From Candidatus Pelagibacter sp. HTCC7211 (lineage in GTDB: Bacteria > Pseudomonadota > Alphaproteobacteria > Pelagibacterales > Pelagibacteraceae), in assembly GCF_000155895.1 (NCBI RefSeq), contig NZ_DS995298.1, positions 1,200,001 through 1,232,000 on the forward strand: DNA of 32,000 nt, in the 5' to 3' direction. The position numbers and the translations under genes were made by a program. This document shows, piece by piece, positions 12,766-31,120 of this stretch. The notes under the pieces were generated by a model that was not told the DNA's origin, searched no databases, and saw only the letters and a list, made by a program, of their open reading frames with translations. Each line of letters begins with the position of its first letter. The stretch's first letter is position 1.

Positions 12766-13710
12766 TTATTTAGTAAAAGCTTGCCAAACTGACTTGTTGT
12801 CAGCTAACCATTTTTTAGCTGCATCTTCATGAGTCATTTTATCAACGTCAACTAAAGCTGCCATTGCACCAATGTGACTTGTTGAAAATGACATCTTTTT
12901 AAATACTGCCGCTGCATCTGGATGAGTTTTTGGAAAATCCTCATGAACTGCTTTTTTCAAGTATCCATCAGGTGAACCACATTTGCCATCTCCACCATCT
13001 TCTGGTCTACAACCAGCTGTGTATGGAGGGAAGTCAATAAATGTAAAACCAGCACCATCTGTAAAGTTTGGAGTCCAGTTAAAGATTATAGTTCCTCTTC
13101 CTTCTTTTTTTGCTGCTGCTAACTCTGCCCAAAGTGCGTCTGCACCTCCAGCAAATTTAACCCACCAAAGATCACCTAAACCAAGTGCATCAACCCTTTG
13201 AGGGATCAAGTCACCGTGCCAACTTTGAGGTCCTTCCAACATTCTTCCTTTTCCATCTGGAGAATCAGGTGTTGTAAAGTTTTTAGCACAATCTGGATTT
13301 TTTAAAGCTGTCCAGTCTGGTAGACCTGGGCATAAACCTTTTTCAACAACCCAATTTGGATAACCCATATCTTCAAGAGTTCTTGCCTCATGATCACCCC
13401 AATCTAATAAACCACCTTTATCTAAAGCAGTAGTAAAAGATTTACCAAAAGCAGATTCCCATACTTCATGAGATATAGTTACATCTCCAATTCTAATAGA
13501 TTCGTAAACTGCTTGTGAGTCTGCGTTAACGTATTTTACGTTATTTCCCATACTTTCGAAAATACCACCAATAACATAAGCCATTACAATTTGGCTTGAC
13601 CAGTTATGAGTTGGGATTACGATGGGCTTTTTGCTATCAGCATTAGATATTCCTGCAAAACTTACTACAGAAATAACTAGGGCAGATATTAATGATATTA
13701 TTTTTTTCAT
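12766..13710 (-). CDS. tmoX: Periplasmic glycine-betaine-family substrate-binding protein, probable TMAO-binding protein
   Basis: 314 aa with signal peptide MKKIISLISALVISVVSFAGISNA and a Trp-rich mature domain typical of ProX/OpuAC quaternary-amine binders. Divergently adjacent to tdm, the arrangement described for TMAO transporters. Confidence 0.72.
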   Translation of the reverse strand: MKKIISLISALVISVVSFAGISNADSKKPIVIPTHNWSSQIVMAYVIGGIFESMGNNVKYVNADSQAVYESIRIGDVTISHEVWESAFGKSFTTALDKGGLLDWGDHEARTLEDMGYPNWVVEKGLCPGLPDWTALKNPDCAKNFTTPDSPDGKGRMLEGPQSWHGDLIPQRVDALGLGDLWWVKFAGGADALWAELAAAKKEGRGTIIFNWTPNFTDGAGFTFIDFPPYTAGCRPEDGGDGKCGSPDGYLKKAVHEDFPKTHPDAAAVFKKMSFSTSHIGAMAALVDVDKMTHEDAAKKWLADNKSVWQAFTK

Positions 13711-13790
13711 TTTTTTCCCCTTATTAATATATTAATTAATAAAGTATGTTCTGAATTAAACTTCTAGTCAACTCGTTTTGATTATAATAA

Positions 13791-13815
13791 ACTTATAAAA
13801 AATATATATAATTTT
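13791..13815 (+). promoter_or_regulatory. Promoter-like block ACTTATAAAAAATATATATAATTTT upstream of tdm (copy A of a shared motif)
   Basis: Matches 21010-21034 at 23 of 25 positions. Contains TATAAT at 13807-13812, 8 nt before the tdm ATG. Confidence 0.4.
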
Positions 13816-13820
13816 GCGTA

Positions 13821-16148
13821 ATGTTAGGAACTAGCAACGAAATTAGAAATCCAGGTCTAAGAGCTTTACCACCAGGAGTTGAAAGATATTTTGTAAAAGG
13901 TGGTGGTTTATCTGTAATAGAGGTTTTTCCAGAAGATCAGATTGAAATTATTAATGATGAAGGAAAACAAATTTGTGAAATAATTGTATTTGACGCTAAT
14001 GGTAAACCAGATCAATCAATTTTAGATTTAAAAGAAAATGCAAATGCTGATTTCTCTAAAAGAGTAATTGCAAAAGATGAAAAAATAACAAAGATTTTTA
14101 AAAAGAGAAATCTAGACCTAAGTAAAGCAAAATCATCAATTATATTTAATGAAGATTGTTTAATGGGAGAAAAAATAACTCATTTAGCAAAAGATAAGTG
14201 CTTTGTATTAATTGCTGCTCCTGGTGATCCTCTAAATGTTCATGAGCAAAATCCGCCAACTGATTTAACAATTTTTGTTAATAGAGCAAAATATTCTGAG
14301 ACAGATGAACAATTTATTTTACCAGATCCTTTAAGTGATCCTATAGTTGAACAGCTTGTTAAAAGAAGAACAGCAGAAACTTATGAAGTTAAAGAAGGAG
14401 AATACATTCAAATTATTGATACAGGTGGAAGGCAATGTTCTGATTTTTTAGCATTTGACACTCATAAATTAAATGATGGTATTGAAAGCATTATTGATGA
14501 CAAAGCAACTAGAACATTTATGGGTAGCGCTTATCCAGGCCCAGGATTATTTTCAAAATTTTATGATGGAAATCATGAAGCAATGGTTGAGGTTGTAAGA
14601 GATACAGTTGGAAGACATGATACGTTCAATTTAGCCTGTACTTCAAAATACTATGAAGATCTTGGTTATATGGGTCATATAAATTGCACTGATAACTTCA
14701 ATAAAGGATTAGAAAAATATGATATCAATGCACGAAAAAGTTGGTCAGCAATAAATCTATTTTTTAATACAGGAATTGATGCAAATAATGTTGCAACATT
14801 CGATGAACCTTGGTCAAGACCTGGTGATTATGTTTTGTTCAGAGCTCTTAAAGATTTAACCTGTATATCATCTGCATGTCCTTGTGATGTAGATGCTGCT
14901 AATGGGTGGAACCCTACAGATATTTTTGTTAGAACTTATGCAAAAAATAATAAATATTCAAAAGCAATTGCATTTAGAATGAAAACTGACTCTGAACCAA
15001 AATTAACTCAAGAAACAGGTTTTCATAAAAAGACATCTGAATTAACAAGAAATTTTGTTGAATACAAAGGTTTTTGGTTGGCTAATAATTTTACAAATTC
15101 AGGAACCATAAAAGAATACAATGCTTGTAGAGAAAGTGCAATAGCAACTGATCTTTCTCCATTAAGAAAATTTGAAATCTTGGGCCCCGATGCTGAGAAT
15201 TTAATGCAATACACTTTAACTAGAAATGTTAAAAAATTATCTGTAGGGCAAGTAGTCTATACAGCAATGTGTTATGAAAATGGATGCATGTTAGATGACG
15301 GTACATTGTTTAAATTTGGACAAGATAATTTTAGATGGATTGGTGGAGATGAGTACAGTGGAGAGTGGTTAAAAGAACAGGCTAAAAAGAAAAAGTATAA
15401 AGTTTGGATCAAATCTGCAACAGATCACATTCATAACATTGCTGTTCAAGGACCAAACAGCAGAAAGATTTTAGAAAAATTTGTTTGGACTGCACCTATT
15501 CAACCATCAATAACTGAGCTTGAATGGTTTAGATTTAATATTGCAAGAATAGAACATGAAACTGGAACACCTATTGTAATTTCAAGAACAGGTTATACTG
15601 GTGAACTTGGATATGAAATTTGGTGCCATCCAAAAGATGCTTCAGAAGTTTGGGATAAAGTTTGGGAAGCTGGTAAAGAATTTGATATAACGCCTCTAGG
15701 TTTAGAAGCTTTAGATATGGTTCGTATTGAAGCTGGGCTTATTTTTTATGGTTATGAATTTAATGATCAAACAGATCCTTTTGAGGCTGGTATAGGTTTT
15801 ACAGTTCCGCTTAAAACAAAAGATGATGACTTTATAGGTAAAGAAGAATTGATTAAAAGAAAAGCAAATCCACAAAGAAAATTAGTTGGTTTAGAGCTTG
15901 TTGGACATGAGCCAGCTGTAAATGGCGATTGTGTTCACGTTGGTCGTGCACAAATTGGTGAAATAACAAGTGGAATGTTATCGCCAAAACTTGGAAAAAA
16001 CATAGCTTTATGTAGGATAGATGTAAAATATTCTGAAATTGGAACTGAAGTTGAAATTGGTAAATTAGATGGTCATCAAAAAAGAATTGATGCAAAAGTA
16101 GTTGCTTTTCCTTTTTATGATCCAACAAAATCTAGAGTGAGAGCTTAA
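13821..16148 (+). CDS. tdm: Trimethylamine N-oxide demethylase (DUF1989 domain fused to GcvT-like tetrahydrofolate-binding aminomethyltransferase domain)
   Basis: 775 aa. The N-terminal half is Cys-containing and DUF1989-like (..FNLACTSKYYEDLGYMGHINCTDNF.., ..CISSACPCDVD..). The C-terminal half has GcvT hallmarks (ISRTGYTGELGYEIW, IEAGLIFYGYEF). This is the domain fusion described for Tdm of Methylocella and SAR11. Confidence 0.85.
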   Translation: MLGTSNEIRNPGLRALPPGVERYFVKGGGLSVIEVFPEDQIEIINDEGKQICEIIVFDANGKPDQSILDLKENANADFSKRVIAKDEKITKIFKKRNLDLSKAKSSIIFNEDCLMGEKITHLAKDKCFVLIAAPGDPLNVHEQNPPTDLTIFVNRAKYSETDEQFILPDPLSDPIVEQLVKRRTAETYEVKEGEYIQIIDTGGRQCSDFLAFDTHKLNDGIESIIDDKATRTFMGSAYPGPGLFSKFYDGNHEAMVEVVRDTVGRHDTFNLACTSKYYEDLGYMGHINCTDNFNKGLEKYDINARKSWSAINLFFNTGIDANNVATFDEPWSRPGDYVLFRALKDLTCISSACPCDVDAANGWNPTDIFVRTYAKNNKYSKAIAFRMKTDSEPKLTQETGFHKKTSELTRNFVEYKGFWLANNFTNSGTIKEYNACRESAIATDLSPLRKFEILGPDAENLMQYTLTRNVKKLSVGQVVYTAMCYENGCMLDDGTLFKFGQDNFRWIGGDEYSGEWLKEQAKKKKYKVWIKSATDHIHNIAVQGPNSRKILEKFVWTAPIQPSITELEWFRFNIARIEHETGTPIVISRTGYTGELGYEIWCHPKDASEVWDKVWEAGKEFDITPLGLEALDMVRIEAGLIFYGYEFNDQTDPFEAGIGFTVPLKTKDDDFIGKEELIKRKANPQRKLVGLELVGHEPAVNGDCVHVGRAQIGEITSGMLSPKLGKNIALCRIDVKYSEIGTEVEIGKLDGHQKRIDAKVVAFPFYDPTKSRVRA

Positions 16149-16496
16149 ATGAAGGGAACAAAAGATTTATTAGAGTTTTGGGAAGATCAAGTGAGGCGTT
16201 CTCATAGTTCTAGTAATTATTTTTTTAGAAAATCTCCATCACATTATCATATGATGTTATTAGTTATGAATTCATATAAAGAAGGTGAAAAATTGTCTGT
16301 CGAAGAACTTAAAACAAAATTATTTAAAACTTCTAGACCCAAATCTGCACTGATAATAAATGAAGCATGTGAAAATAATTTTTTCTATTTAGAAAAAACA
16401 TCATCAGATCAAAGAAAAAAAAATATTAAACCAACACAGGCATTTGTTAAAGAATTTGATGAATACATGGAAAAATTAAAAAATTTAGAACTTTAA
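16149..16496 (+). CDS. Small winged-helix (MarR-like) putative transcriptional regulator
   Basis: 115 aa. Its ATG immediately follows the tdm stop (TAAATG). The pattern LSVEELKTKL...SALIINEACENNFFYLEKTSSDQRKKNIKPT fits an HTH plus D-x-R wing. No close family member recognised by eye. Confidence 0.45.
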   Translation: MKGTKDLLEFWEDQVRRSHSSSNYFFRKSPSHYHMMLLVMNSYKEGEKLSVEELKTKLFKTSRPKSALIINEACENNFFYLEKTSSDQRKKNIKPTQAFVKEFDEYMEKLKNLEL

Positions 16497-16530
16497 TTTT
16501 CTAGTAAGTAAATATTTTATTAAGATCAGT

Positions 16531-17418
16531 CTATTTTCTATTTAACACTTCTTTTACTGTTTCGCCCATAACAGATGGATTTTTAGAAATTGTTACACCG
16601 CATTCTTTTAAAAGTTCTACCTTTTCAACTGCACTTTCTCCGTAAGCTGAAACAATTGCACCAGCATGACCCATCACTCTTCCTTTTGGAGCGGTTAATC
16701 CTGCAATGTAACCTACTATAGGTTTTTTCATATTTTCTTTTGCAAATTCCCCAGCTGCTACTTCTTGAGGTCCACCAATCTCACCAATCATTAAAATCAA
16801 ATCTGTTTCATCGTCAGTTTCAAATTTTTCAATGATGTCTCTAAAAGAACTTCCATTAATTGGATCACCTCCAATACCAACACTTGTCGAAATCCCAATA
16901 TTTAAATCCATTAATTGTTGTGCCGCTTCATATCCTAAAGTTCCAGATCTACTAATAATTCCAACTCTACCCTCCTTGTAAATATGACCAGGCATAATTC
17001 CCAACATTGATTTACCAGGACTTATTATTCCTGCACAATTAGGTCCTACTAAGGTCATTTTTTCTTTTCTAGAATATCTTCGCATGTATCGTTTTATTCT
17101 GATCATGTCATGTGAAGGAATTCCATCAACAATAGCAACACATGTTTTTATTCCTGCATCTGCAGCTTCCATTGCAGAGTCTGCTGCAAAAGCTGGGGGA
17201 ACAAATAATATTGAAGCAGTGGCGCCTGTTTCTTGCACAGCATCTTTTACTGTGTTGAATACTGGTTTATCTAAATGTTTTTGACCACCTTTTCCAGGTG
17301 TTACTCCTCCAATAACGTTAGATCCATATTTTATCATTTCTTCAGCATGAAAAGTTCCCATTTTTCCAGTGAACCCTTGAATTAATATTTTCGTATCTTT
17401 TTGAATAATTACTGCCAT
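16531..17418 (-). CDS. mtkB: Malate--CoA ligase (malate thiokinase) alpha/small subunit, SucD-like
   Basis: 295 aa. ILIQGFTGKMGTFHAEE, GGVTPGKGG and the phosphohistidine loop MGHAGAIV match the succinyl-CoA ligase alpha family. Assigned to Mtk because it is operonic with malyl-CoA lyase. Confidence 0.7.
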   Translation of the reverse strand: MAVIIQKDTKILIQGFTGKMGTFHAEEMIKYGSNVIGGVTPGKGGQKHLDKPVFNTVKDAVQETGATASILFVPPAFAADSAMEAADAGIKTCVAIVDGIPSHDMIRIKRYMRRYSRKEKMTLVGPNCAGIISPGKSMLGIMPGHIYKEGRVGIISRSGTLGYEAAQQLMDLNIGISTSVGIGGDPINGSSFRDIIEKFETDDETDLILMIGEIGGPQEVAAGEFAKENMKKPIVGYIAGLTAPKGRVMGHAGAIVSAYGESAVEKVELLKECGVTISKNPSVMGETVKEVLNRK

Positions 17419-19524: not shown

Positions 19525-19667
19525 AATTACTTTAATTAGATAATTTAATATTTATTAAAAAGGTCCTTATTACAAATAATTTAATTGTATTAAATATATA
19601 TATAAATTTTAGTACTATAAATAATACTTTCATCGTAAATCCATTTTGTTAATAATTGATTAAATTT

Positions 19668-20996
19668 ATGTCAAGTTTACCGAACAAAGCTAAAGTAGTT
19701 ATAATTGGTGGTGGAATTCACGGTTTAAGTACAGCTTGGAAACTTTCTGAAACTTATAAAAATCCAGGTGACATTGTCGTCTTAGAAAAAAAAGATATCG
19801 CTGCAGGGGCAAGTGGTATTGCATGTGGTGTTGTTAGAAATAATTATTTTCAACCGGCTATGAGAGAGTTAATGGCTCATTCAGTTTCTGTCTGGGAGAG
19901 CGACCCTAAGGCATTTAAATATAATGCTGTAGGTTATTTACAAATTTCTCCAGAAGTAATGCACGAAGATGTTGCAACGATTTATGAACAGCAAAAAGCT
20001 ATTGGTTACGATTCAGAATTTATTGAAGGTGAAAAAGATTGTATGAATTACATGAAAGGTATGTTTGATGATTGGCAAGCTCAAGGTATCACCTCAGTTC
20101 TTCATGAAAAAAAAGGTGGTTACGCTTTTAATAAAGATTCGATTAAAGCTCTTGAAAATAAATCTACTTCGAATGGTGTTCAAGTTATTAAAGGTGTCAA
20201 AGTTACAGGATTTAAAAGAGGAAGTAACAGTAAAGCTGTTACAGGTGTTGAAACTGATAATGGAACAATAGAATGTGAACAGGTTGTGGTTGGAGCGGGT
20301 CCGTGGGCTAGAGATTTTTGGAATATGTTAGAACTTCCTAAAACTGCAAGCATCAAAGGTAAAGATGGTAAAATGCATGTAACAGATATGTGGACATATT
20401 GGATGTTACAAGAGGGTGTGATTGGTGTTGAGCCTGATTTTTTAAAAATGAACAATGGACAACAGCCACCAGTTATTCATGTAGACTCTACTGCTCCATT
20501 ATATTCAGATAAAACTAAAAAATTAATCACAGATAAAATTTGGGGAATTTATTACAAACCTGATATTGAAGGTTTAGGTGTTCAAGGTGGAACTTCACCT
20601 TACATAGTAGATAAACATTTTGATCAAGTGAATGTTGATCCATATGGAATAGAGTCACCAGAATACCAAACTACAGAGGCGTTTAATGATATGTGGTGCT
20701 CTGCTTTAGCTCATTGTCAAAAAAGATTTGAAGGAAAATCTGATCTTTACAGAAAAGGTCCATCAGGTGGTCTTGGGTGTATGACGCCAGATTCTTTTCC
20801 GATCTTTGATAGATTTTTAGAAAACGTTTACATGATCGCTGATGCAAACCATGGGTATAAAATGATTGGTGTAGGTGAACTTGTTGCAAAAGAAATTCTT
20901 GGAACTGAGAGCGATCTTTTAAAACCTTTTAGATTCAACCGATACGAGAAAGGTGAACTTCACCCTACTTCAAACAGTCCATTCCCTTGGAGCTAA
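19668..20996 (+). CDS. FAD-dependent oxidoreductase, DAO family (sarcosine oxidase beta / MgdA-like), stand-alone
   Basis: The track ORF starts at a TTG (19656); the ATG at 19668 gives MSSLPNKAKVVIIGGGIHGLSTAWKL (a GxGxxG dinucleotide fold). About 442 aa with SoxB-like length and layout. No delta, alpha or gamma subunit genes lie nearby. Confidence 0.8.
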   Translation: MSSLPNKAKVVIIGGGIHGLSTAWKLSETYKNPGDIVVLEKKDIAAGASGIACGVVRNNYFQPAMRELMAHSVSVWESDPKAFKYNAVGYLQISPEVMHEDVATIYEQQKAIGYDSEFIEGEKDCMNYMKGMFDDWQAQGITSVLHEKKGGYAFNKDSIKALENKSTSNGVQVIKGVKVTGFKRGSNSKAVTGVETDNGTIECEQVVVGAGPWARDFWNMLELPKTASIKGKDGKMHVTDMWTYWMLQEGVIGVEPDFLKMNNGQQPPVIHVDSTAPLYSDKTKKLITDKIWGIYYKPDIEGLGVQGGTSPYIVDKHFDQVNVDPYGIESPEYQTTEAFNDMWCSALAHCQKRFEGKSDLYRKGPSGGLGCMTPDSFPIFDRFLENVYMIADANHGYKMIGVGELVAKEILGTESDLLKPFRFNRYEKGELHPTSNSPFPWS

Positions 20997-21116: not shown

Positions 21117-22586
21117 ATGACTGACCTAGAAAAACACGTTAACCAACCAGGTAGAACCAAATTAGTTAAACAAGTTAGAGCTAAAATAAATGAACTTGGT
21201 ATTGAATATATTTTTTTTCAATTCATATCTGTTACAGGTAGAGTTGTTGGGAAAGGAATTCCAACTGATCACTGGGAAAGAACATGTGAAAAAGGCTTTC
21301 AATTAGTATATGGAGCAACAGCAAACTTATTTACTGATCGACACGGCAATTACATCGGTTATGGACCTGAAGCAAAAGAACTTGTAGGTATACCTGATCC
21401 AGAAACTTTTTGCCAATTACCTTGGGATAAAAAAGTAGCAAGAGTATTTGTAACTTGTTTTAGAAACAGAGAAGAAAGAGATAATCCTGGTGCTCATTTA
21501 ACTTCAGATTGCAGAGGAAATTTAAGAATACATGCTCAAGAATTTAAGAAAAAACATGGTTATCAACTAAGAGTTGGAACTGAACCAGAGATGATGTGGC
21601 TAACAAAAAATGAAGATGGAACACCGACTGGAAAAGGTTTTTCTAAACCATATTGTTATCACATAGATCAATTCGAGTCTTTAAGACCAGTATTTATGCA
21701 AGTTATGAAATATGCGAGAGCTATGGGTCTTGACATGATTCAAGGTGATCATGAGGATGCTCCAGGACAATTAGAATTAAACTGGATGTATGATGATGTT
21801 TTAAGAAATGCAGATAGACTATCAACCTACAGACAAATTTGTGCTCAAGTTGCAAGAGAATTTAATCTAATTGCATGTTTCATGACAAAACCATTTATGG
21901 GAGTATCTGCAAGTGGATGTCATACTAATATGTCTTTATGGACAGGTGGAAAAGATAAAGTGAATAAATTAGGACATAAATCTCTACCCGCAATGGATGA
22001 GGTATTTACTTATGTTGAAGGTGGGAAAAATACATTTATGCCAGATACTAAAGATGTTCAATTACCAGGTAAAGTTGGTTTAAAAGCTATTGGTGGTGTT
22101 ATGAAACACCTTGGTGCTTTAACAGCAATTGGATCTTCAACAGTAAACTCATATAGAAGATTATGGGATCAAGGTTTTTGGGCGCCAGTTTATGCGGACT
22201 GGGGATACCAAAATAGAACTTGTGGATTAAGAGTATCAGCACCTGGTAGATTTGAGTACCGTTCAGTTGACTCTATGCATAATCCCTATTTGATGGGATC
22301 AGGATTGTTAAAATGTTTTGATGATGGGATATCAAACAATATCGATCCAGGAAAACCAGAGTCGCGAAGTATGTATGAAGCTCAAGCAGCTGGTAAAGAA
22401 GTTAAAAAATTACCTTTAAGTCTTGGTCAAGCACTTGACCGTTTAGCTGAGGATGAAGTGATTAAATCAGCTATGCCAGATGAAATGTATAAAGTCTTTC
22501 ATTGGTATAAAAATGATGAATGGGAAAGATTTTTAGGTGCTACAACTCAATGGGATCTAGATACATATCTTGATTGTCTACCATAG
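21117..22586 (+). CDS. Glutamine synthetase-family ligase (type III/GmaS-like, atypically long), substrate unknown
   Basis: 489 aa. GS catalytic motifs are present: GTEPEMMW, GDHEDAPGQLELNW, FMTKPFMGVSASGCHTNMSLW, NSYRRL. Strong SD AAGGGGGA upstream. Confidence 0.85.
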   Translation: MTDLEKHVNQPGRTKLVKQVRAKINELGIEYIFFQFISVTGRVVGKGIPTDHWERTCEKGFQLVYGATANLFTDRHGNYIGYGPEAKELVGIPDPETFCQLPWDKKVARVFVTCFRNREERDNPGAHLTSDCRGNLRIHAQEFKKKHGYQLRVGTEPEMMWLTKNEDGTPTGKGFSKPYCYHIDQFESLRPVFMQVMKYARAMGLDMIQGDHEDAPGQLELNWMYDDVLRNADRLSTYRQICAQVAREFNLIACFMTKPFMGVSASGCHTNMSLWTGGKDKVNKLGHKSLPAMDEVFTYVEGGKNTFMPDTKDVQLPGKVGLKAIGGVMKHLGALTAIGSSTVNSYRRLWDQGFWAPVYADWGYQNRTCGLRVSAPGRFEYRSVDSMHNPYLMGSGLLKCFDDGISNNIDPGKPESRSMYEAQAAGKEVKKLPLSLGQALDRLAEDEVIKSAMPDEMYKVFHWYKNDEWERFLGATTQWDLDTYLDCLP

Positions 22587-22617: not shown

Positions 22618-23562
22618 ATGTGTGGAATTGCAGGTTTAATTCATAGAGGTAAATCTTCTAATGTTGGAAGCGAACTACAAGGTATGCTTCAAGCGTTAAA
22701 ACATAGAGGAGAAGATTCAACTGGTTACGCTTTATATGGTGATACAGATGGTAAAAACTTTATTATGCGTTTTAAAGTTGGAGAAAATGTTGGTGAAGGA
22801 AGTTCATCAATTATGGAGGATGTTTCGGTATATGACGAGAGAAAAAAGATAGTTGATGAGACCTTAAGAGAATTAGGTGCAAGAATTATAAAAGAAGAGA
22901 GAACCCTTCCCTACTCATTAAGATATGAAATCAGTTATGATAAGAAAGATTTATTGGATTTTTCTCAAAGAATCGAAAGTATTCCAGGTGTAGAGATACT
23001 TTCCATGGGTAAATCTTTAGAGGTAATTAAAGATCTTGGGAATGCTAAAGCTGTCTGTGATCGATACTCTTTAGATAAGCTTGTAGGAACTCACGCTATT
23101 GGTCATGCTAGGATGGCAACAGAGTCTGGGGTAGATATTAAATCTGCACACCCTTTTTGGGGCTATCCATTCAGCGATGTATCAGTAGTTCATAACGGTC
23201 AACTAACAAATTATTGGAACAACAGAAGAGCTTTAGAAAATAAAGGTATGAGATTTATGTCTGAATGTGACTCTGAGTTAATAGCAGTTTATATTGCTCA
23301 AAAAATGAGGGAAGGAGCTAGCCTTGCAGAAGGAATGAAAGAGTCTTTAACTGGACTTGATGGGGTATTTACTTATTTTGTTGCAACAAAAGACTCATTA
23401 GGAATGGCAAAAGATACTATGGCTGCTAAACCACTAGTTCTTTACGAATCAGATAACTTAGTCGCAATGGGTTCAGAAGAAATAGCGATCAGATCAGTTC
23501 TTCCACAAGAAATTGATACGTATGATCCATTTGATGGAGAGGTAAAAGTATGGCAAATCTAA
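22618..23562 (+). CDS. Class-II (Ntn) glutamine amidotransferase domain protein, GltB N-terminal-like / MgsA-like (module 1)
   Basis: 314 aa starting MCGIAGL (nucleophile Cys2), with GHARMATES and VVHNGQLTNY motifs. SD GAAGGGG upstream. Confidence 0.85.
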   Translation: MCGIAGLIHRGKSSNVGSELQGMLQALKHRGEDSTGYALYGDTDGKNFIMRFKVGENVGEGSSSIMEDVSVYDERKKIVDETLRELGARIIKEERTLPYSLRYEISYDKKDLLDFSQRIESIPGVEILSMGKSLEVIKDLGNAKAVCDRYSLDKLVGTHAIGHARMATESGVDIKSAHPFWGYPFSDVSVVHNGQLTNYWNNRRALENKGMRFMSECDSELIAVYIAQKMREGASLAEGMKESLTGLDGVFTYFVATKDSLGMAKDTMAAKPLVLYESDNLVAMGSEEIAIRSVLPQEIDTYDPFDGEVKVWQI

Positions 23563-24404
23563 AAACAAACGAGAAAAAATCTAAAGCCCAGTCAATGGGT
23601 ATGCACACAGAAGTTTTAACAGGAAGAACTCAGCAAAAGTTTTTTAATCCTGATGAGGCTGAAAACTTTTATTATTTTGGGACATATGATGTTGATTTTA
23701 ATAAAAGAACAGATCTTGATGTAAAAGATATGACAGCTCCCGAGGCTAACAAAGAAATTGATAAATTAATGAGTGAAGGTTATGGAACTATTGTAATTAA
23801 AAATCCTCAAGGAAAACATAGCTTAGGCGTTGGTATACTTAATAAACTAAACTTAATATTTGAAGGAAGTTTAGGATATTTTGGTATGGGTTCATGTGAT
23901 GGTCCAACGGTTAGAATTAATGGTAGAGTTGGTTGGTCCTGTGCTGAAAATTTAATGGCTGGTAAAGTTGTTATTGAGAAAAATGCAGGCTCATGTTTTG
24001 GTGCAGCTATCAGAGGCGGTGATTTAATTTGTAAAGGTAGTGTTGGTGCAAGAACTGGAATTGATATGAAAGGTGGAACTATCATTATTGGTGGTGACGC
24101 TGGTGCATTTACTGGATTTATGATGCAAAGAGGTAGAATAATTATCCTTGGAGACGTTGGTATAAACTTGGGCGACTCTATGTATGATGGGACAATTTTC
24201 ATAGGTGGAAGTATTGGTTCATATGGTAGTGATGCTGTAGATGCTGAATTGACTGTAAGTGACCAAGATTGGTTAAAAAGAAAGTTAAAAGTGGCTGAAA
24301 TTGGTGAAAATTTTGATGTAAGTAAAATGAAAAAAATTGTAGCTGGTAAAAAACTTTGGAATTACGATAATTTAGAACCTACAGAGAAGAAGGGAGCAAT
24401 ATAA
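23550..24404 (+). CDS. GXGXG-motif beta-helix protein, GltB C-terminal-domain-like / MgsB-like (module 1), with about 50-aa N-terminal extension
   Basis: 284 aa with repeated G-x-G-rich turns (GRVGWSCAENLMAGKVVIEKNAGSCFGAAIRGGDLICKGSVGARTGIDMKGGTIIIGGDAGAFTG). 13-nt overlap with the upstream gene and SD GGAGAGG. Confidence 0.8.
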   Translation: MANLKTNEKKSKAQSMGMHTEVLTGRTQQKFFNPDEAENFYYFGTYDVDFNKRTDLDVKDMTAPEANKEIDKLMSEGYGTIVIKNPQGKHSLGVGILNKLNLIFEGSLGYFGMGSCDGPTVRINGRVGWSCAENLMAGKVVIEKNAGSCFGAAIRGGDLICKGSVGARTGIDMKGGTIIIGGDAGAFTGFMMQRGRIIILGDVGINLGDSMYDGTIFIGGSIGSYGSDAVDAELTVSDQDWLKRKLKVAEIGENFDVSKMKKIVAGKKLWNYDNLEPTEKKGAI

Positions 24405-25813
24405 TGCCTAAGAAAAAAACAAAAAAGAAAAATGGTAATGGAAGTGTTGGTGGAAAAGCTGACGTTCATGCACATGAAGATGGAAAAAGAAACAAAAGCT
24501 TATTAGGTCATAATGCTATTTTTACTCCTGAGGTAATTGACGATATTCATATCAAGTCTCAGTTAGGAAGATACAGAATGCGTGGAATGGCATTAATGAA
24601 AAAAATTCCGACATTTGATGATCTAGTTTTCTTACCTGGTACACTTACAAGATTTGTAATCGAAGGCTATAGAGAAAAATGTGAAACTAAAACTGTAATT
24701 GGTCCAAGATGTGAAAACCCTATTGAGCTTGATATACCTGTTTATATTACTGGTATGAGTTTTGGGGCACTTTCTTATGAAGCAAAAACTGCTTTAGCAA
24801 GAGGAGCTACAATGGCTGGAAGCGCTACTTGTTCTGGAGAAGGTGGAATGATACCTGATGAAAGAAGATATTCTGAAAAATGGTATTACCAGTGTATTCA
24901 ATCAAGATACGGTTTTAATCCTCATCATGCTCAACTTGCGGATGGAATTGAAGTTTTCATCGGCCAAGGTCAAAAAGTTGGTATGGGTGGACACTTAATG
25001 GGTCAAAAAGTAACTGACCAAGTAGCTGAAATGAGATCATTGCCTTCTGGTATTGATCAAAGATCTCCTGCTAGACACCCTGACTGGTTGGGTCCAGATG
25101 ACTTAGCTCTTAAGGTTGAAGAATTAAGACAATTAACAAAAAATAAAGTACCAATTCAATTGAAGCTTGGAGCATCAAAAGTTTATGATGATGTTCGTAT
25201 GGCTGCAAAATGTGACCCTGACTCTATCTATCTAGATGGTATGGAAGGTTCTACTGGAGCTGGACCCCATATTGCAGCTGCAAATACTGGTATCCCAGGA
25301 ATTGCTGCAATCAGAGAAGCAAGAAGAGCAATTGATGATGTTGGTAAAACTGGAAAAGTAACTTTAATTTATGCTGGTGGTGTTAGAGATGGTGCTGATA
25401 TGGCAAAAGCTTTAGCATTAGGTGCTGATGCAATTGCAATTGGTACTGGATCAATGATCGCTTTAAACTGTAATAAAGACATCCCAGAAGCTAATTTTGA
25501 AAAAGAAATGGGTGTAAAAGCTGGTGAATGTTATCACTGTCATACAGGACGTTGTCCAGTTGGTGTTGCAACACAGGATCCTAAACTAAGAGCAAGATTA
25601 AATCCTGATGACGCTGCACTAAGAGTTTACAACTATCTTCACTCAATGACTTTAGAAGCTCAGCTTTTAGCAAGAGCGTGTGGTAAAACTAACATCCATT
25701 CTCTAGAGCCAGAAGATTTAGCTGCACTTACTTCTGAGGCATCAGCTTTAGCAAAAGTTCCTTTAGCCGGTACAAACTATACAGTTGGTGTAGATAACTA
25801 TCATAAAATTTAG
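24404..25813 (+). CDS. FMN-dependent glutamate synthase-like subunit (GltB FMN domain / MgsC-like, module 1) retaining a Cys-rich Fe-S-type motif
   Basis: 469 aa. GMSFGALS, IGQGQKVGMGG, YLDGMEGSTGAG and GECYHCHTGRCPVGVATQDP are present. TAATG overlap with the upstream gene. Lys-rich N-terminus MPKKKTKKKNGNG. Confidence 0.85.
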   Translation: MPKKKTKKKNGNGSVGGKADVHAHEDGKRNKSLLGHNAIFTPEVIDDIHIKSQLGRYRMRGMALMKKIPTFDDLVFLPGTLTRFVIEGYREKCETKTVIGPRCENPIELDIPVYITGMSFGALSYEAKTALARGATMAGSATCSGEGGMIPDERRYSEKWYYQCIQSRYGFNPHHAQLADGIEVFIGQGQKVGMGGHLMGQKVTDQVAEMRSLPSGIDQRSPARHPDWLGPDDLALKVEELRQLTKNKVPIQLKLGASKVYDDVRMAAKCDPDSIYLDGMEGSTGAGPHIAAANTGIPGIAAIREARRAIDDVGKTGKVTLIYAGGVRDGADMAKALALGADAIAIGTGSMIALNCNKDIPEANFEKEMGVKAGECYHCHTGRCPVGVATQDPKLRARLNPDDAALRVYNYLHSMTLEAQLLARACGKTNIHSLEPEDLAALTSEASALAKVPLAGTNYTVGVDNYHKI

Positions 25814-25821
25814 GGGTAACT

Positions 25822-26238
25822 ATGGTTAAGAAAAAAAATAAAAAAAAAGTCACAAAGTCAAAGGCTGCTAAAGACCAACAATTAGGCAAGAAAAAAGAAA
25901 CAGCTAGAGAAAAAATGATTGGTCAATCAATCGGTTATAGATATGACGTTAATCTTCTTCCTGACTATACAAAGATAACCCCGTTTCTTAAAAAATATGT
26001 AGAAGCAATGGGATGGGATGATCTTAACTGGTTAGAAGATGTTCATATGGGTTATGAAGAAGGTAGACCAGCAGTGTTTTGTAGAAATGCAAATGGCTGG
26101 GTAACTATTCCAAGTTCAATCAAACTTCCAAACAATCAGCAAGATAGAGATATGATTGCAAGAGAACTTTTAGTTAAGTTTCAAATGTCTCCAAAACACC
26201 CTCTTGTTGATTTGAAAAAAGCTTATCTAAAATTTTAA
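25822..26238 (+). CDS. Hypothetical protein with poly-Lys N-terminus, last gene of module 1
   Basis: 138 aa (MVKKKNKKKVTKSKAAK... then a Trp/Asp-rich globular part). SD AGGGG 8 nt upstream. An 8-nt spacer from the FMN subunit gene, followed by a hairpin. No family recognised. Confidence 0.6.
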   Translation: MVKKKNKKKVTKSKAAKDQQLGKKKETAREKMIGQSIGYRYDVNLLPDYTKITPFLKKYVEAMGWDDLNWLEDVHMGYEEGRPAVFCRNANGWVTIPSSIKLPNNQQDRDMIARELLVKFQMSPKHPLVDLKKAYLKF

Positions 26239-26365: not shown

Positions 26366-27766
26366 ATGACTGATCAGTTAGGCGCTCTCACAACCATATT
26401 TACAGAATTTTACTACTGGGTAACAGTGGTACTGATGTTTTTAATTCACGTCGGTTTCTGTATGTATGAAGTTGGAGCGTCAAGATACAAACACCATCAA
26501 CATACCTTAATGAAAAATACAATGCTTATACCTTTGGTAACAGTAACTTGGTTTTTATTTGGTTGGTGGATTTATTGGGCTTTTCCAACAGGACCAGGAA
26601 TTGCTCCATCAATTATGACAGAAAGTACCGGGCTAGTTTTAGGTGGAGGATTTGGAGGAAATGATCTTGCTAATCCAACTAATGCTCTTATGGCAATTAA
26701 TCTTAACGACCATATAATGGGTGTTTTCTGGGCAGCATTCTTGTTATTTTCATGGACGGCTGCTTCTATTGTTTCAGGGGCTGTTATCGAAAGAATAACA
26801 ACTTTTGCATTTGGAGTTTTAGCAATTGCGATTGGATCTGTTTTCTGGTCGATAGATGCTTCATGGGGATGGCATTTTGATGGATGGATGCTTAAAATTT
26901 TAGGATATCATGATGCTTATGCGTCAGGTGTAATTCACGCAATAGCAGGTGGATTTGCACTTGGTGTTCTTATGGTTTTAGGACCTAGAATTGGAAAATT
27001 TGCATCAAATGGAGAACCTAGAAATATAGGACCACGAAATCCTTGGCTAGTTACTATTGGATTATTTTTAATTTATACTGGTTTCTGGGGATTTTATGCG
27101 GCATGTAATGTTCCAATATATGACCTTGGACCTGAGTATGGAATGGAAGGAGTAACATTCTGGACAGCAACTAACATTTACTTAACACCTACTACATTAA
27201 GTGGAATAACTATGAATTTCTTAATGTCGTTATCAGGTGGATTGTTAGCTGGATATGTTATTGCAAAAGGTGATCCTTTCTGGACTTACTCAAGTGGGCT
27301 AGCAGGTATAATATGTGCATCAGCTGGAAATGACTTATATCATCCAATTCAAGCATTGATTATTGGTATGATTGGTGTTGTGATTTCTTACAAACTTCAT
27401 TATTGGGTTGAACGGAAGTTCAAAATTGATGATGCAGTTGGAGCAGTAGCTGTGCATGGTTATGCTGGTTTTATTGGACTTGTAATTTGTGGATTTGTTT
27501 TAAATGGCTACCCAGCATCTGGTTACAGTGTTGGCGCTATGTGGGACGGATCAACATATGCAACAATTAATCCATTAGGACAATTCTTAGGAGCGATAAT
27601 AATGTTCTTAGTTCTTGGACTAATACCAGGCTACATCATAGCTAAGATACTAAACGGTATGGGTAAATTAAGAATCCCTCGTGAAGTAGAGATAGCTGGA
27701 TTAGACTATGAAACAATGGAATCTGCTAAAGAAGATGAAAAAGCAGTTTCATCGGCAACCAGGTAA
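26366..27766 (+). CDS. amt: Ammonium/methylammonium transporter, Amt family
   Basis: 466 aa, about 11 TM. Both conserved pore histidines sit in Amt contexts (AYASGVIHAIAGGFALG and DDAVGAVAVHGYAGFIG). SD GGGAGAG upstream. Confidence 0.88.
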   Translation: MTDQLGALTTIFTEFYYWVTVVLMFLIHVGFCMYEVGASRYKHHQHTLMKNTMLIPLVTVTWFLFGWWIYWAFPTGPGIAPSIMTESTGLVLGGGFGGNDLANPTNALMAINLNDHIMGVFWAAFLLFSWTAASIVSGAVIERITTFAFGVLAIAIGSVFWSIDASWGWHFDGWMLKILGYHDAYASGVIHAIAGGFALGVLMVLGPRIGKFASNGEPRNIGPRNPWLVTIGLFLIYTGFWGFYAACNVPIYDLGPEYGMEGVTFWTATNIYLTPTTLSGITMNFLMSLSGGLLAGYVIAKGDPFWTYSSGLAGIICASAGNDLYHPIQALIIGMIGVVISYKLHYWVERKFKIDDAVGAVAVHGYAGFIGLVICGFVLNGYPASGYSVGAMWDGSTYATINPLGQFLGAIIMFLVLGLIPGYIIAKILNGMGKLRIPREVEIAGLDYETMESAKEDEKAVSSATR

Positions 27767-27777
27767 AGGAGAAAAAT

Positions 27778-28008
27778 ATGGCTACAGTAACAAACTGGAT
27801 AGATCATCTAAATAAACCTGCAGAAGAGGTTGCTGGATCGGTTTATCCTGGAGCAGGATCTAGTGAATTTATACTAGTTCTATTGTTAATTGTTGTATGG
27901 ATTGGATGGAGTGTCATTACAGATAAATCTGAAAGAGAAGAACTTGAAAGATTATCTCGAAAAAGACACGGTGCAAACGACCATAAAAGCAATATTACCG
28001 ATTGGTAA
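27778..28008 (+). CDS. Small single-pass membrane protein with charged C-terminal tail, coupled to amt
   Basis: 76 aa with TM helix FILVLLLIVVWIGWSVI, then DKSEREELERLSRKRHGANDHK. Canonical SD AAGGAG at 27766-27771, 6 nt before the ATG. Only 11 nt separate it from the amt stop, and a strong terminator follows. Confidence 0.6.
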   Translation: MATVTNWIDHLNKPAEEVAGSVYPGAGSSEFILVLLLIVVWIGWSVITDKSEREELERLSRKRHGANDHKSNITDW

Positions 28009-28023
28009 TTAAATAAATAATTT

Positions 28024-28056
28024 GGGCGCTACTTAATTGTAGCGCCCTTTTTTTTT
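28024..28056 (+). terminator. Rho-independent terminator of the amt / small-protein unit
   Basis: GGGCGCTAC-TTAATT-GTAGCGCCC (9-bp GC-rich stem) followed by nine T. It starts 16 nt after the stop at 28008. Confidence 0.85.
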
Positions 28057-28065
28057 GATTTAAAT

Positions 28066-28218
28066 ATGACAGATGAAGATAAAAAAGTATTAAGACCATC
28101 GAAGATGAGAGGTGTAGTATTTCCAAAAGCTAAATACGGTGTGATAGCTGCTATAATCATCATTGTAGTAGCTAATGTTATCTACTATAAGGATTTTTTA
28201 ATTTCTTTAATAAACTAA
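28066..28218 (+). CDS. Possible 50-aa small membrane protein (unsupported by SD)
   Basis: My translation is MTDEDKKVLRPSKMRGVVFPKAKYGVIAAIIIIVVANVIYYKDFLISLIN, with one hydrophobic helix. It fills most of the gap between the terminator and mgsA. No SD, and it is too short for the ORF track. Confidence 0.25.
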   Translation: MTDEDKKVLRPSKMRGVVFPKAKYGVIAAIIIIVVANVIYYKDFLISLIN

Positions 28219-28230
28219 ACCAAAAAAATT

Positions 28231-29115
28231 ATGTGTGGAATTGTTGGCATCTACTTAAAAACAAAAAAATATGAAAAAAGTTTGGGTAAGATGTTGTCTG
28301 GAATGCTCAATAATATGGAGTCTAGAGGTCCTGATAGTGCTGGATTTGCAATTTATAAAAATGAAGAAAAAAAAATTTTTAAATACTCATTATGTATTGG
28401 TGATTTAGATTTCAATAAATTTAAAAAAGAAATCTCAAAAAAAATTAATAAATCTAAATTAAATCAATATTCAGATCACGTAATTCTTAAAACCCCGATA
28501 GAGCCTAAAACCGTTATAAAAATTATTAATAATAGTTTTCCAGAAATCTCACTGGTTGGTTATGGAAATTCAATTGAAATTTTTAAACAAGTTGGAAACC
28601 CAAAAGATGTAGTTAAAAAATTTAAATTAGATAGTTTTAGTGGTACCCATGGAATTGGTCACACCAGAATGGCAACAGAAAGTGCCATAACAACAGATGG
28701 TTCTCATCCCTATTCTACTGGAAAAGATGAGTGTTTAGTACACAATGGATCATTATCAAATCATAACAATCTTAGAAGAAAACTTATAAAAAAAGGTAAC
28801 ATTTTTAATTCTGAAAATGATACTGAAGTTGCAGCAGGTTATGTTTCAAATAGTTTGTCAAATAAGAAATCATTAAAAGATACTTTGGTGTCAGGTTTAA
28901 AAGACTTAGATGGATTTTATACATTTATTACTGGTACAAAAAAAGGATTTGCAGTTGTTAGAGATGAAATAGCTTGTAAACCGGCTGTCATAGCTGAAAC
29001 AAAAAACTATGTAGCAATTGCATCTGAATTTCAAGCGATGGCTCATTTGCCAGATGTAAATAGTGCAAAAATTTTTGAACCAGAACCTGGTATTGTTTAT
29101 TCTTGGGGAAATTAA
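28231..29115 (+). CDS. mgsA: N-methylglutamate synthase subunit A-like class-II glutamine amidotransferase (module 2)
   Basis: 294 aa starting MCGIVGI, with GHTRMATES and LVHNGSLSNH. First gene of an mgsA-mgsB-mgsC-gmaS-ordered set. Confidence 0.7.
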   Translation: MCGIVGIYLKTKKYEKSLGKMLSGMLNNMESRGPDSAGFAIYKNEEKKIFKYSLCIGDLDFNKFKKEISKKINKSKLNQYSDHVILKTPIEPKTVIKIINNSFPEISLVGYGNSIEIFKQVGNPKDVVKKFKLDSFSGTHGIGHTRMATESAITTDGSHPYSTGKDECLVHNGSLSNHNNLRRKLIKKGNIFNSENDTEVAAGYVSNSLSNKKSLKDTLVSGLKDLDGFYTFITGTKKGFAVVRDEIACKPAVIAETKNYVAIASEFQAMAHLPDVNSAKIFEPEPGIVYSWGN

Positions 29116-29798
29116 TGAAATTAGATTTAAAGAAATTAAAATTAAGAGAAGTAAATGAAAAATTACAAAGTTTAGATCGTAAACAAAATGATAGAAATTT
29201 TACAATAGTTAATCCAGAGGGAAATCATGCTCTTTGTGCAGGGTTAACAGATGAGATAAATATAAATATTAAAGGACATGTGGGTTATTACTGTGCTGGA
29301 ATGAATCAAAAAGCTCAAATTACTATTGATGGAAACGTGGGTACTGGTGTGGCTGAAAATATGATGTCAGGAAAGGTTCATGTTAAAGGTAATGCATCCC
29401 AATCAGCTGGTGCTACCGCACATGGAGGGCTATTAATAATTGATGGTGATGCTAGTTCAAGATGTGGAATTTCAATGAAAGGAATTGATATTATTGTAAA
29501 AGGATCAGTTGGACATATGTCTGGTTTTATGTCTCAATCAGGCAATATGGTAGTTTGCGGTGATGCTGGTGAGGCATTAGGTGATAGTTTATATGAAACT
29601 AACATATATATAAGAGGTAAAGTTAAATCACTTGGTGCAGATTGTGTTGAAAAAAAAATGGATAAAAATCATATTAAAAAACTTAATTCACTTTTAAAAG
29701 ACGCAAGTATTAAAAATCTTAAAGCTGAAAGTTTTAAAAGATACGGTTCAGCAAGAAAATTATATAATTTTAAAATTGACAATGTATCAAGCTACTAA
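29115..29798 (+). CDS. mgsB: N-methylglutamate synthase subunit B-like GXGXG protein (module 2)
   Basis: The track ORF starts at a TTG (29103). The ATG at 29115 forms the same TAATG stop-start overlap seen in module 1. GNVGTGVAENMMSGKVHVKGNASQSAGATAHGGLLIIDGDASSRCG beta-helix repeats. Confidence 0.7.
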   Translation: MKLDLKKLKLREVNEKLQSLDRKQNDRNFTIVNPEGNHALCAGLTDEININIKGHVGYYCAGMNQKAQITIDGNVGTGVAENMMSGKVHVKGNASQSAGATAHGGLLIIDGDASSRCGISMKGIDIIVKGSVGHMSGFMSQSGNMVVCGDAGEALGDSLYETNIYIRGKVKSLGADCVEKKMDKNHIKKLNSLLKDASIKNLKAESFKRYGSARKLYNFKIDNVSSY

Positions 29799-29800
29799 AT

Positions 29801-31120
29801 ATGAAAAAAAATAATAAAACACATCCTCGTCAGTCTTGGACTTTTGACAAATATACAAATTCTGAAATAAGACGAGCGGCAGAAACTGGAATATATGATA
29901 TCAGGGGCGGTGGATCAAAAAGGAAACTTCCGCATTTTGATGACTTATTATTCTTAGGTGCATCAATGTCTAGATATCCTTTAGAAGGTTACCGAGAAAA
30001 ATGCACAACTAATGTTACACTTGGAACTAAATATGCAAAAAAACCATTAGAGTTAGATATTCCAATTACGATTGCAGGTATGAGCTTTGGAGCTTTATCT
30101 GGTCCAGCTAAAGAAGCACTAGGTAGAGGTGCTAGTGCTGCTGGAACTTCTACAACAACTGGTGATGGAGGAATGACCCCTGAAGAAAGAGGACAATCAA
30201 AATATTTAGTTTATCAGTTATTACCCTCTAGATATGGCATGAATCCTGATGATTTAAGAAAAGCCGATGCAATAGAAGTTGTTATTGGCCAGGGTGCAAA
30301 ACCTGGTGGTGGTGGAATGTTATTAGGTCAAAAAATTAATGATCGAGTTGCAAAAATGAGAACTTTGCCAAAAGGTGTAGATCAAAGATCAGCGTGTAGA
30401 CATCCTGATTGGACAGGACCAGATGATTTAAAAATTAAAATTTTAGAATTAAGAGAAATTACCAAATGGAAGGTTCCAATATTTATTAAAATTGCTGGAG
30501 CTAGACCATATTATGATACCGCTTTAGCTGTAAAAGCAGGAGCAGATGTTGTTGTTCTTGATGGAATGCAAGGAGGAACTGCTGCAACACAAGAAGTATT
30601 TATTGAAAATGTTGGTCAACCTACCCTTGCTTGTATTAAGCCAGCTGTTGATGCACTTCAAGATTTAAATTCACACCGCGAAGTACAATTAGTTATTTCT
30701 GGAGGTATTAGAAATGGAGGTGACGTTGCTAAAGCTTTAGCCTTGGGGGCTGATGCTGTATCAATTGGAAGTGCAGCTATGATTGCACTTGGTGATAATG
30801 ATCCTAAATGGGAAAAAGAATATAATATGCTTGGGACAACTGCAGGTGCGTATGATGATTGGCATGAAGGAAATGATCCAGCTGGAATTTCAACTCAAAA
30901 TCCAAAATTAATGAAAAGATTAGATCCTGTTAAAGCAGGTAAAAGATTAACTAATTATTTAAAAGTAATGACGCTTGAAGCGCAAACTCTTGCAAGGGCT
31001 TGTGGAAAAAATAGCCTTCACAATCTTGAACCTGAAGATTTATGTGCTTTAACAGTAGAAGCAGCAGCTATGGCTGGAGTTCCCTTAGCTGGTACGAACT
31101 GGATACCTGGAAAAAAATAA
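29801..31120 (+). CDS. mgsC: N-methylglutamate synthase subunit C-like FMN protein (module 2), lacking the Cys motif
   Basis: 439 aa. GMSFGALS, IGQGAKPGGGG and VLDGMQGGTAAT are present. The position of the module 1 Cys motif reads AYDDWHEGNDPAGISTQNP. Confidence 0.7.
   Translation: MKKNNKTHPRQSWTFDKYTNSEIRRAAETGIYDIRGGGSKRKLPHFDDLLFLGASMSRYPLEGYREKCTTNVTLGTKYAKKPLELDIPITIAGMSFGALSGPAKEALGRGASAAGTSTTTGDGGMTPEERGQSKYLVYQLLPSRYGMNPDDLRKADAIEVVIGQGAKPGGGGMLLGQKINDRVAKMRTLPKGVDQRSACRHPDWTGPDDLKIKILELREITKWKVPIFIKIAGARPYYDTALAVKAGADVVVLDGMQGGTAATQEVFIENVGQPTLACIKPAVDALQDLNSHREVQLVISGGIRNGGDVAKALALGADAVSIGSAAMIALGDNDPKWEKEYNMLGTTAGAYDDWHEGNDPAGISTQNPKLMKRLDPVKAGKRLTNYLKVMTLEAQTLARACGKNSLHNLEPEDLCALTVEAAAMAGVPLAGTNWIPGKK

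Follow-up and report, generated by a model that had tools for sequence, protein, structure and literature searches.

The 32,000-nucleotide stretch analysed here, referred to as the window (contig NZ_DS995298.1, positions 1,200,001 to 1,232,000), comes from the complete 1.46 Mb genome of the SAR11 bacterium Candidatus Pelagibacter sp. HTCC7211 and carries two gene sets for a split, glutamate-synthase-like enzyme. Each set encodes a GATase, a GXGXG protein and a flavin mononucleotide (FMN)-binding subunit: module 1 lies downstream of the gene for the trimethylamine N-oxide (TMAO) demethylase Tdm, and module 2 is an mgsABC set in front of gmaS. The FMN subunit of module 1 has four conserved cysteines that that of module 2 lacks. 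Phylogenetic analysis identified four Cys as the ancestral condition, with a single loss along the stem of one MgsC/GlxD crown clade, and among Pelagibacter strains the mgsABC cassette has been exchanged while the gmaS behind it stayed in place. The contrast between the two modules is thus strain-specific; it records evolutionary history and is no evidence of different chemistry. The module 1 cysteines themselves probably represent the inherited Fe-S site of the glutamate-synthase FMN domain.

Translation of positions 25499-25600 gave GECYHCHTGRCPVGVATQDP, with TGT codons at 25529, 25538 and 25553, and translation of positions 30821-30922 gave GAYDDWHEGNDPAGISTQNP, which bears out the description of a Cys motif in module 1 and a Cys-free counterpart in module 2 from which the original prediction had started. 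The two FMN proteins share 50% identity over 439 residues, and the two motif stretches align without gaps. A fourth conserved cysteine, C356 in an ALNC context, had been overlooked; with it the module 1 spacing reads C-x19-C-x2-C-x4-C-P (C356, C376, C379 and C384), and pairwise alignment placed D332, Y351, W354 and D359 of module 2 at these four positions. An insertion of about 17 residues, common to both modules, separates the first ligand position from the remaining motif.

HMMER alignment to solved GltS chains (7MFM, 6S6S and 1EA0) matched C356, C379 and C384 to the three ligand positions of the cluster, with C376 as an additional cysteine three residues ahead of the middle ligand C379. The proposed correspondence to the 3Fe-4S site of GltS therefore holds for the site, which is homologous, but the ligand set is C356/C379/C384 and not C376/C379/C384 as had been assumed; the cysteines do not map away from the cluster site. 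When residues were counted along the 6S6S row with the 36-residue propeptide removed, these three corresponded to Cys1102, Cys1108 and Cys1113 of Azospirillum GltS, which we take to be its 3Fe-4S ligands. Full-text literature searches returned nothing on an N-methylglutamate synthase (NMGS) with a 3Fe-4S cluster, nor on the residue numbers of the GltS ligands.

The PF01645 profile scored 298 bits (E 1e-88) against the module 1 FMN subunit, a stand-alone protein of 469 amino acids, and 286 bits against that of module 2. An AlphaFold2 model of the module 1 subunit, built from 69 sequences, had a mean predicted local distance difference test (pLDDT) score of 89.5 and a predicted template modelling score of 0.88, with residues 350-390 at pLDDT 93-97, and its top PDB matches were the GltS FMN domains 1OFD, 7MFM, 1EA0 and 6S6S (E about 1e-24 for the first three). 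The protein thus has the GltS FMN domain, with both PF01645 and the TIM-barrel FMN fold, and shares with GltB and ferredoxin-dependent GltS (1EA0, 6S6S, 1OFD and 7MFM) the top sequence and fold matches, the three ligand cysteines and the PVGVATQ context; the ligand motif, C-x5-C-x4-C-P in GltS, is split by the insertion in module 1 and absent from module 2. It differs from GltS in standing alone beside separate GATase and GXGXG genes, in the insertion and in the fourth cysteine. A bona fide glutamate synthase combines GATase, central, FMN and GXGXG domains in one polypeptide and works with GltD or ferredoxin, which is not the arrangement of module 1, and the true GltB of this genome (1507 amino acids) is encoded outside the window.

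About 110 metagenomic orthologs sharing at least 77% identity with the module 1 FMN protein, 81 of 81 Pelagibacterales/HIMB59 module 1 loci and all 16 module 1 loci of other alphaproteobacterial families kept the four cysteines without exception; the pattern therefore exceeds chance. In one scan of genome contigs, the best 80 loci all belonged to Pelagibacterales or HIMB59. Among 72,556 records of plasmid-borne proteins, none exceeded 52% identity to the module 1 FMN protein. In genome G200, the module 1 FMN gene (L091 8931-10306) has a one-base frameshift immediately after ALNCNKDIP, and the frame downstream of it retains the CYHCHTGRCPVGVATQ motif and an intact C-terminus; a mistake in the assembly or a break that occurred very recently would explain this.

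Representatives of the wider family fell into three motif classes when sorted by insertion and Cys content: proteins without the insertion, carrying GC-x5-C-x4-CP (GltS-like) or GC-x2-C-x2-C-x4-CP; proteins with the insertion and four Cys; and proteins with the insertion and no Cys. Among the insertion-free proteins, the closest relatives have the GC-x2-C-x2-C-x4-CP form. In maximum-likelihood trees rooted on true GltB, the insertion clade was monophyletic (support 99) and nested among the insertion-free four-Cys forms. Its first split separated the module 1 clade (support 100), which is entirely four-Cys, from the MgsC lineage, and the latter consisted of a four-Cys grade (P0129, G092, Paraburkholderia, G200 and a SAR11/HIMB59 clade) leading to one Cys-less crown (support 99-100). 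This crown contains the Rhizobium, Agrobacterium and Methylobacterium proteins and module 2 of the window, the last nested among Rhizobiales- and Rhodobacterales-type sequences (support 95-99). The four-Cys proteins that occupy the module 2 position in other SAR11/HIMB59 genomes (slot 2, between amt and gmaS) formed a clade of their own (support 99), grouping with crown MgsC rather than with module 1. Because the GltB-rooted trees show a four-Cys grade that ends in a single Cys-less crown, the four-Cys state is ancestral and its loss occurred once.

These distributions also bear on whether the cysteines bind a cluster at all. They might instead hold zinc, form disulfides or persist as a metal-free structural relic, since a metal in the module 1 protein is predicted from sequence and fold, and the crown clade shows that the fold tolerates a full swap of the site to Asp, Tyr and Trp. 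We consider this very unlikely: three of the positions are exactly the GltS ligands in a conserved C-P-V-G-(V/I)-(A/T)-T-Q context, the fourth is placed as in the insertion-free four-Cys relatives, cytoplasmic disulfides are unlikely, and the joint loss of all four cysteines in the crown is what would be expected of the ligands of one cofactor.

The module 2 FMN protein is 80-84% identical to proteins annotated as 'FMN-binding glutamate synthase family' in Rhizobium, Agrobacterium, Aminobacter, Paracoccus and Thioclava, all encoded in glxB-glxC-glxD-glnT operons. These relatives, together with 20 of 20 further canonical MgsC proteins from a phylum-wide genome sample, were without the Cys set and shared the consensus ...GDN...(A/F)YDDW(H/Q)xGxD-PAGI; two of the 20 (G024 and G262) retained one stray Cys. 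Such stray cysteines lay at differing spots of the former cluster site inside the crown (L094/G244, L101/G262 and L116/G024), with at most one per protein. Module 2 is thus of the canonical GlxD/MgsC type and no oddity, because the MgsC proteins of lineages in which the pathway has been studied (Methylobacterium, Agrobacterium and Rhizobium etli GlxD) are likewise Cys-less. The mgsABC genes of M. extorquens DM4 are active in P. putida (PMC6237917). Both a plasmid-borne MgsC copy of Methylobacterium and its near-identical chromosomal relative are Cys-less. For the alphaproteobacterial enzymes, a Cys triad is accordingly not a general property of MgsC, which would have made module 1 the ordinary form. 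We rejected a view of module 1 as an ordinary MgsC, as it forms a separate clade with its own ligase, and one of module 2 as a decayed copy, as the motif that replaced the cysteines shows strong conservation and identity to proteins of other orders is still 80-84%.

Four-Cys proteins also occur in what are otherwise standard operons. Those nearest to the crown are encoded in ordinary GATase-GXGXG-FMN-GmaS operons, which have neither a DAO gene nor a gene for the 138-amino-acid protein that follows the module 1 FMN gene, and in G200 and G429 the four-Cys form is the sole MgsC ortholog. The 120 best database relatives of Paraburkholderia MgsC, all betaproteobacterial MgsC-type proteins (Caballeronia, Aquabacterium, Zoogloea, Rhodocyclaceae, Derxia and Sphaerotilus) labelled N-methylglutamate synthase subunit C by their sources, had four or more cysteines without exception; four-Cys relatives from Rhodocyclaceae and Zoogloea were among the matches listed in this search, and none of those listed came from Methyloversatilis. 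Four-Cys MgsC proteins (Paraburkholderia, Zoogloea and Aquabacterium, and nBUS_30 and HIMB59 slot 2) resemble the module 1 protein in the insertion and in the motif ...(G/N)CN...C-H-H-C-H-T-G-(K/R)-C-P-V-G, but they belong to gmaS-linked operons, group with crown MgsC and are only 51-53% identical to the module 1 protein.

To compare the slot within Pelagibacter, we counted the order amt - mgsA - mgsB - mgsC - gmaS wherever the fetched flank reached it. The mgsC gene in the slot was Cys-less in 14 loci and four-Cys in six, the latter with the motif ...ALNCNADLY..DY.KLGTEPG(Y/F)CHHCHTGRC-PVGVATQ. Carriers of the four-Cys form included nBUS_30 (a complete genome), HIMB1427, one Pelagibacterales metagenome-assembled genome and HIMB59, and G761, a genome of the same genus that was fetched separately, has it too. 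Between nBUS_30 and the window, protein identity was 96% for GmaS and 99% for the module 1 FMN subunit, versus 74% for MgsA, 71% for MgsB and 74% for MgsC. At the nucleotide level, identity was 82-94% in module 1 and amt and 86-90% in gmaS, and it fell to 69-80% at 28.0-31.0 kb only; this low-identity span corresponds to window positions 28000-31000 and L006 positions 13590-16540. HTCC8051 showed no drop in identity over mgsABC when compared to the window. Since identity falls only across mgsABC and module 2 nests in a crown of other orders, the cassette has been swapped upstream of a gmaS that stayed in place, and both of its forms evidently serve the same operon.

The original prediction had read the kept and lost cysteines as a sign that module 1 performs a redox reaction and module 2 a redox-neutral one. 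That step is not supported: sister strains carry a four-Cys MgsC in the very same slot; the four-Cys MgsC of ordinary mgsABC-gmaS operons, its position as sole ortholog in G200 and G429 and the 120 of 120 betaproteobacterial proteins speak against it as well. The cysteines are therefore no marker of redox versus redox-neutral enzymes.

Taken as a whole, we regard the following history as the likely one. The entire insertion-bearing MgsC-like family would have started with four cysteines, and one MgsC crown clade would have shed all four together, arriving at the conserved D...YDDW...D replacement. In the Pelagibacter lineage of the window, a Cys-less mgsABC of the crown clade would then have taken the place of a four-Cys cassette before the resident gmaS, and modules 1 and 2 would differ in cysteines here because of that replacement. 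In module 1, the four cysteines would bind a 3Fe-4S or 4Fe-4S cluster beside the FMN; C376, which is common to the four-Cys stand-alone GltB2-like relatives, could complete the latter. In the classical mechanism of EC 2.1.1.21, glutamate is first oxidised to an imine, which is reduced again once the amine has been exchanged. In an N-alkylglutamate-synthase reaction of this kind FMN would cycle internally, so that the cluster would be dispensable for net turnover. Most likely, the module 1 cluster is a retained structural or redox-poising element and not an obligatory inlet or outlet for electrons; the conserved D/YDDW/D motif that took over the site in the crown is consistent with a structural part for which different side chains are adequate. 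The distinct activity of module 1 would be set by its own glutamine synthetase (GS)-like ligase, DAO flavoprotein and 138-amino-acid partner rather than by the cysteines.

The main competitor to this history holds that the module 1 cluster is a working electron wire for a net redox reaction, either a GOGAT-like reductive amination of 2-oxoglutarate with an amine or the reverse oxidation, while module 2 is redox-neutral; the DAO flavoprotein, the 138-amino-acid protein, GltD or a ferredoxin could be its partner. In GltS, the homologous cluster passes electrons to FMN, and three of the four module 1 cysteines align with the ligands of that cluster. The cysteines are moreover invariant in all module 1 orthologs, and module 1 always comes with a DAO-family flavoprotein and the conserved 138-amino-acid protein, both lacking in module 2. 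However, the same four cysteines occur in mgsABC-gmaS operons without a DAO or 138-amino-acid gene, the sister Pelagibacter slot included, and the 138-amino-acid protein contains just one Cys. In the 20 genomes read, where neighbours were compared only with the window's own proteins, neither a GltD-like nor a ferredoxin gene turned up in or beside module 1, and DAO-family enzymes are, to our knowledge, not partners of Fe-S wires. The cofactors of NMGS have been stated to be unknown and its exact reaction is unsettled, with one published scheme being GOGAT-like (PMC6237917), which leaves some room for a wire. On balance, we judge a working wire improbable.

Several points weigh against the retained-site history. 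For module 1, an Fe-S cluster is predicted from sequence and fold, and the assignment of the four-Cys slot-2 proteins as probable N-methylglutamate synthases draws on operon position and orthology. The MgsC proteins of M. universalis FAM5, M. extorquens DM4 and Methylocella were represented by close proxies only. Finally, the strict retention of four cysteines in the iron-poor, streamlined genomes of SAR11 argues that the cluster is useful, possibly in electron transfer.

Comparison with the known MgsABC/GlxBCD and GmaS (GlnT) systems of Methylobacterium extorquens, Agrobacterium tumefaciens, Rhizobium etli and Methyloversatilis universalis showed that module 1 resembles them in the three-gene split, the insertion in the FMN subunit and 50% identity. 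It differs in that its FMN subunit belongs to a sister clade (support 100) and lies outside the GlxD/MgsC clade that includes module 2, in the additional DAO and 138-amino-acid genes and in the four cysteines where crown MgsC has none. Its ligase, 27-29% identical to GmaS, scored 290 bits against a TIGR03105 cut-off of 470, so that module 1, unlike module 2, is not an mgsABC set beside gmaS. On a plasmid of Candidatus Mycobacterium methanotrophicum, a single gene for an FAD-binding (flavin adenine dinucleotide) oxidoreductase that resembles the module 1 DAO (L084 6296-7486) directly follows glnT-mgsABC.

The genes downstream of tdm, from DAO through GmaS, correspond to SAR11_1304 to SAR11_1316 in HTCC1062 numbering. 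In published work on methylamine oxidation in SAR11, only the second set (glxBCD and glnT) was assigned and the first was left without assignment (PMC3160333, PMC3870248); our literature search found no paper that gives module 1 a function. The features of the window are listed below.

Features of the two modules and their surroundings in the window (positions from the first nucleotide of the window)
Feature	Position	Strand	Remark
Tdm, TMAO demethylase (DUF1989 + GCV_T)	13821-16148	+	Presence predicts module 1 presence in a genome
DAO-family FAD oxidoreductase, SAR11_1304 type	19656-20996	+	Opens the conserved module 1 block
Module 1 GS-like ligase, SAR11_1305 type	21117-22586	+	27-29% identity to GmaS
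Module 1 class II GATase (MCG start)	22618-23562	+	
Module 1 GXGXG protein	23550-24404	+	GATase and GXGXG pair spans 22618-24404
Module 1 FMN subunit, Glu_synthase PF01645, SAR11_1308 'gltB2' type	24404-25813	+	Four-Cys with MgsC-type insertion
Cys356 codon TGT, module 1 FMN subunit	25469-25471	+	Aligned with first 3Fe-4S ligand of GltS
C376-x2-C379-H-x3-C384 then PVGVATQ, module 1	25529-25555	+	C379 and C384 match GltS ligands 2 and 3; C376 extra
138-amino-acid protein, 3' of module 1 FMN gene	25822-26238	+	71-82% identity across families
Amt-family transporter, SAR11_1310 type	26366-27766	+	Sits between modules 1 and 2
Module 2 GATase (MgsA-like, MCG start) and GXGXG protein (MgsB-like)	28231-29798	+	With mgsC, the cassette that varies among Pelagibacter strains
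Module 2 FMN subunit, canonical Cys-less MgsC/GlxD	29801-31120	+	80-84% identity to Rhizobium, Aminobacter and Paracoccus proteins
Asp332 codon, module 2 MgsC	30794-30796	+	Matches the Cys356 position
Module 2 Y-DD-W-H-EGN-D stretch	30851-30877	+	Aligned to the Cys motif; D/YDDW/D kept throughout the Cys-less crown clade
GmaS, type III GS, TIGR03105	31149-32000 (cut by window end)	+	87-96% identity in strains with the four-Cys cassette

Beyond the cysteines, module 1 behaves as a six-gene system. Its gene order (DAO, GS-like ligase, GATase, GXGXG, FMN subunit and 138-amino-acid protein) is kept at 54-87% identity, and the conserved block was found in two large-genome Alphaproteobacteria and 16 further families. 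The 138-amino-acid gene always follows the four-Cys FMN gene of module 1, in the window, in L090 (11099-11503) and in the remaining module 1 loci, and mgsABC-gmaS operons lack it; its product matched no Pfam or NCBIfam family, and a protein atlas gave only unnamed clusters for it. This protein is a candidate fourth subunit. In L135, L136 and L137 (genomes G593, G718 and G443), a second, divergent ligase of the module 1 type, 54-59% identical and without GATase, GXGXG and FMN genes, adjoins a distant GS-like gene.

Co-occurrence was evaluated in an even set of 401 alphaproteobacterial genomes, with counts uncorrected for phylogeny. Of these genomes, 38 had the module 1 ligase, 33 had Tdm and 45 gave strong hits to PF11927, the marker for dimethylamine monooxygenase (Dmm). 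Module 1 occurred in 24 of the 33 Tdm-positive genomes versus 14 of the 368 Tdm-negative ones (Fisher 1e-21, ignoring phylogeny), and these 24 genomes span about 16 family codes. Among the Tdm-positive genomes, PF11927 was found in one of 24 with module 1, whereas six of nine without module 1 had it (p = 5e-4, ignoring phylogeny). Two genomes served to validate PF11927 as a marker for Dmm: its gene adjoins one with 'DmmA-like_N' and Fer2 domains in the first and forms part of a reductase-PF11927-tmm-tdm cluster in the second. G429 and G715 (family code f119; streamlined, tdm-carrying genomes of about 1.4 Mb) gave weak partial PF11927 matches (E 1e-14 to 1e-16), which probably belong to a different HODM-like protein rather than to Dmm; module 1 was found in G429 and not in G715.

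Published work reports that SAR11 lacks dmmDABC throughout (PMC5520151), and what becomes of dimethylamine in these bacteria is treated there as an open question (PMC5520151, PMC3870248). Tentatively, and with real doubt, we suggest from the co-occurrence pattern that module 1 might be the missing dimethylamine route in SAR11 and in other Tdm-positive, Dmm-free Alphaproteobacteria. On such a route, the GS-like ligase would make gamma-glutamyl-dimethylamide, the GATase/GXGXG/FMN enzyme would transfer the amine to a 2-oxoglutarate skeleton, and the DAO flavoprotein would strip off a methyl group, so that N-methylglutamate enters the known pathway; the predicted Fe-S cluster, conserved in the FMN subunit, may take part as a redox element. 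Ligase chemistry on a secondary amine is feasible, because a GmaS that takes dimethylamine poorly (Km 16 mM) does so with a similar kcat (PMC7948447).

These results remove the cysteines as a tempting but wrong marker that would tell a 'redox' from a 'neutral' enzyme. NMGS appears to exist in two interchangeable forms, with and without a probable Fe-S site, that are swapped as a cassette inside Pelagibacter, and this natural exchange provides a ready-made experiment on the purpose of the cluster and possibly on iron economy in the ocean. The motif difference is real and informative for enzyme evolution, and the module 1 system as a whole is of still greater interest: its four-Cys enzyme belongs to a conserved six-gene system of the most abundant marine bacteria, and its distribution makes the handling of dimethylamine by SAR11 directly testable.

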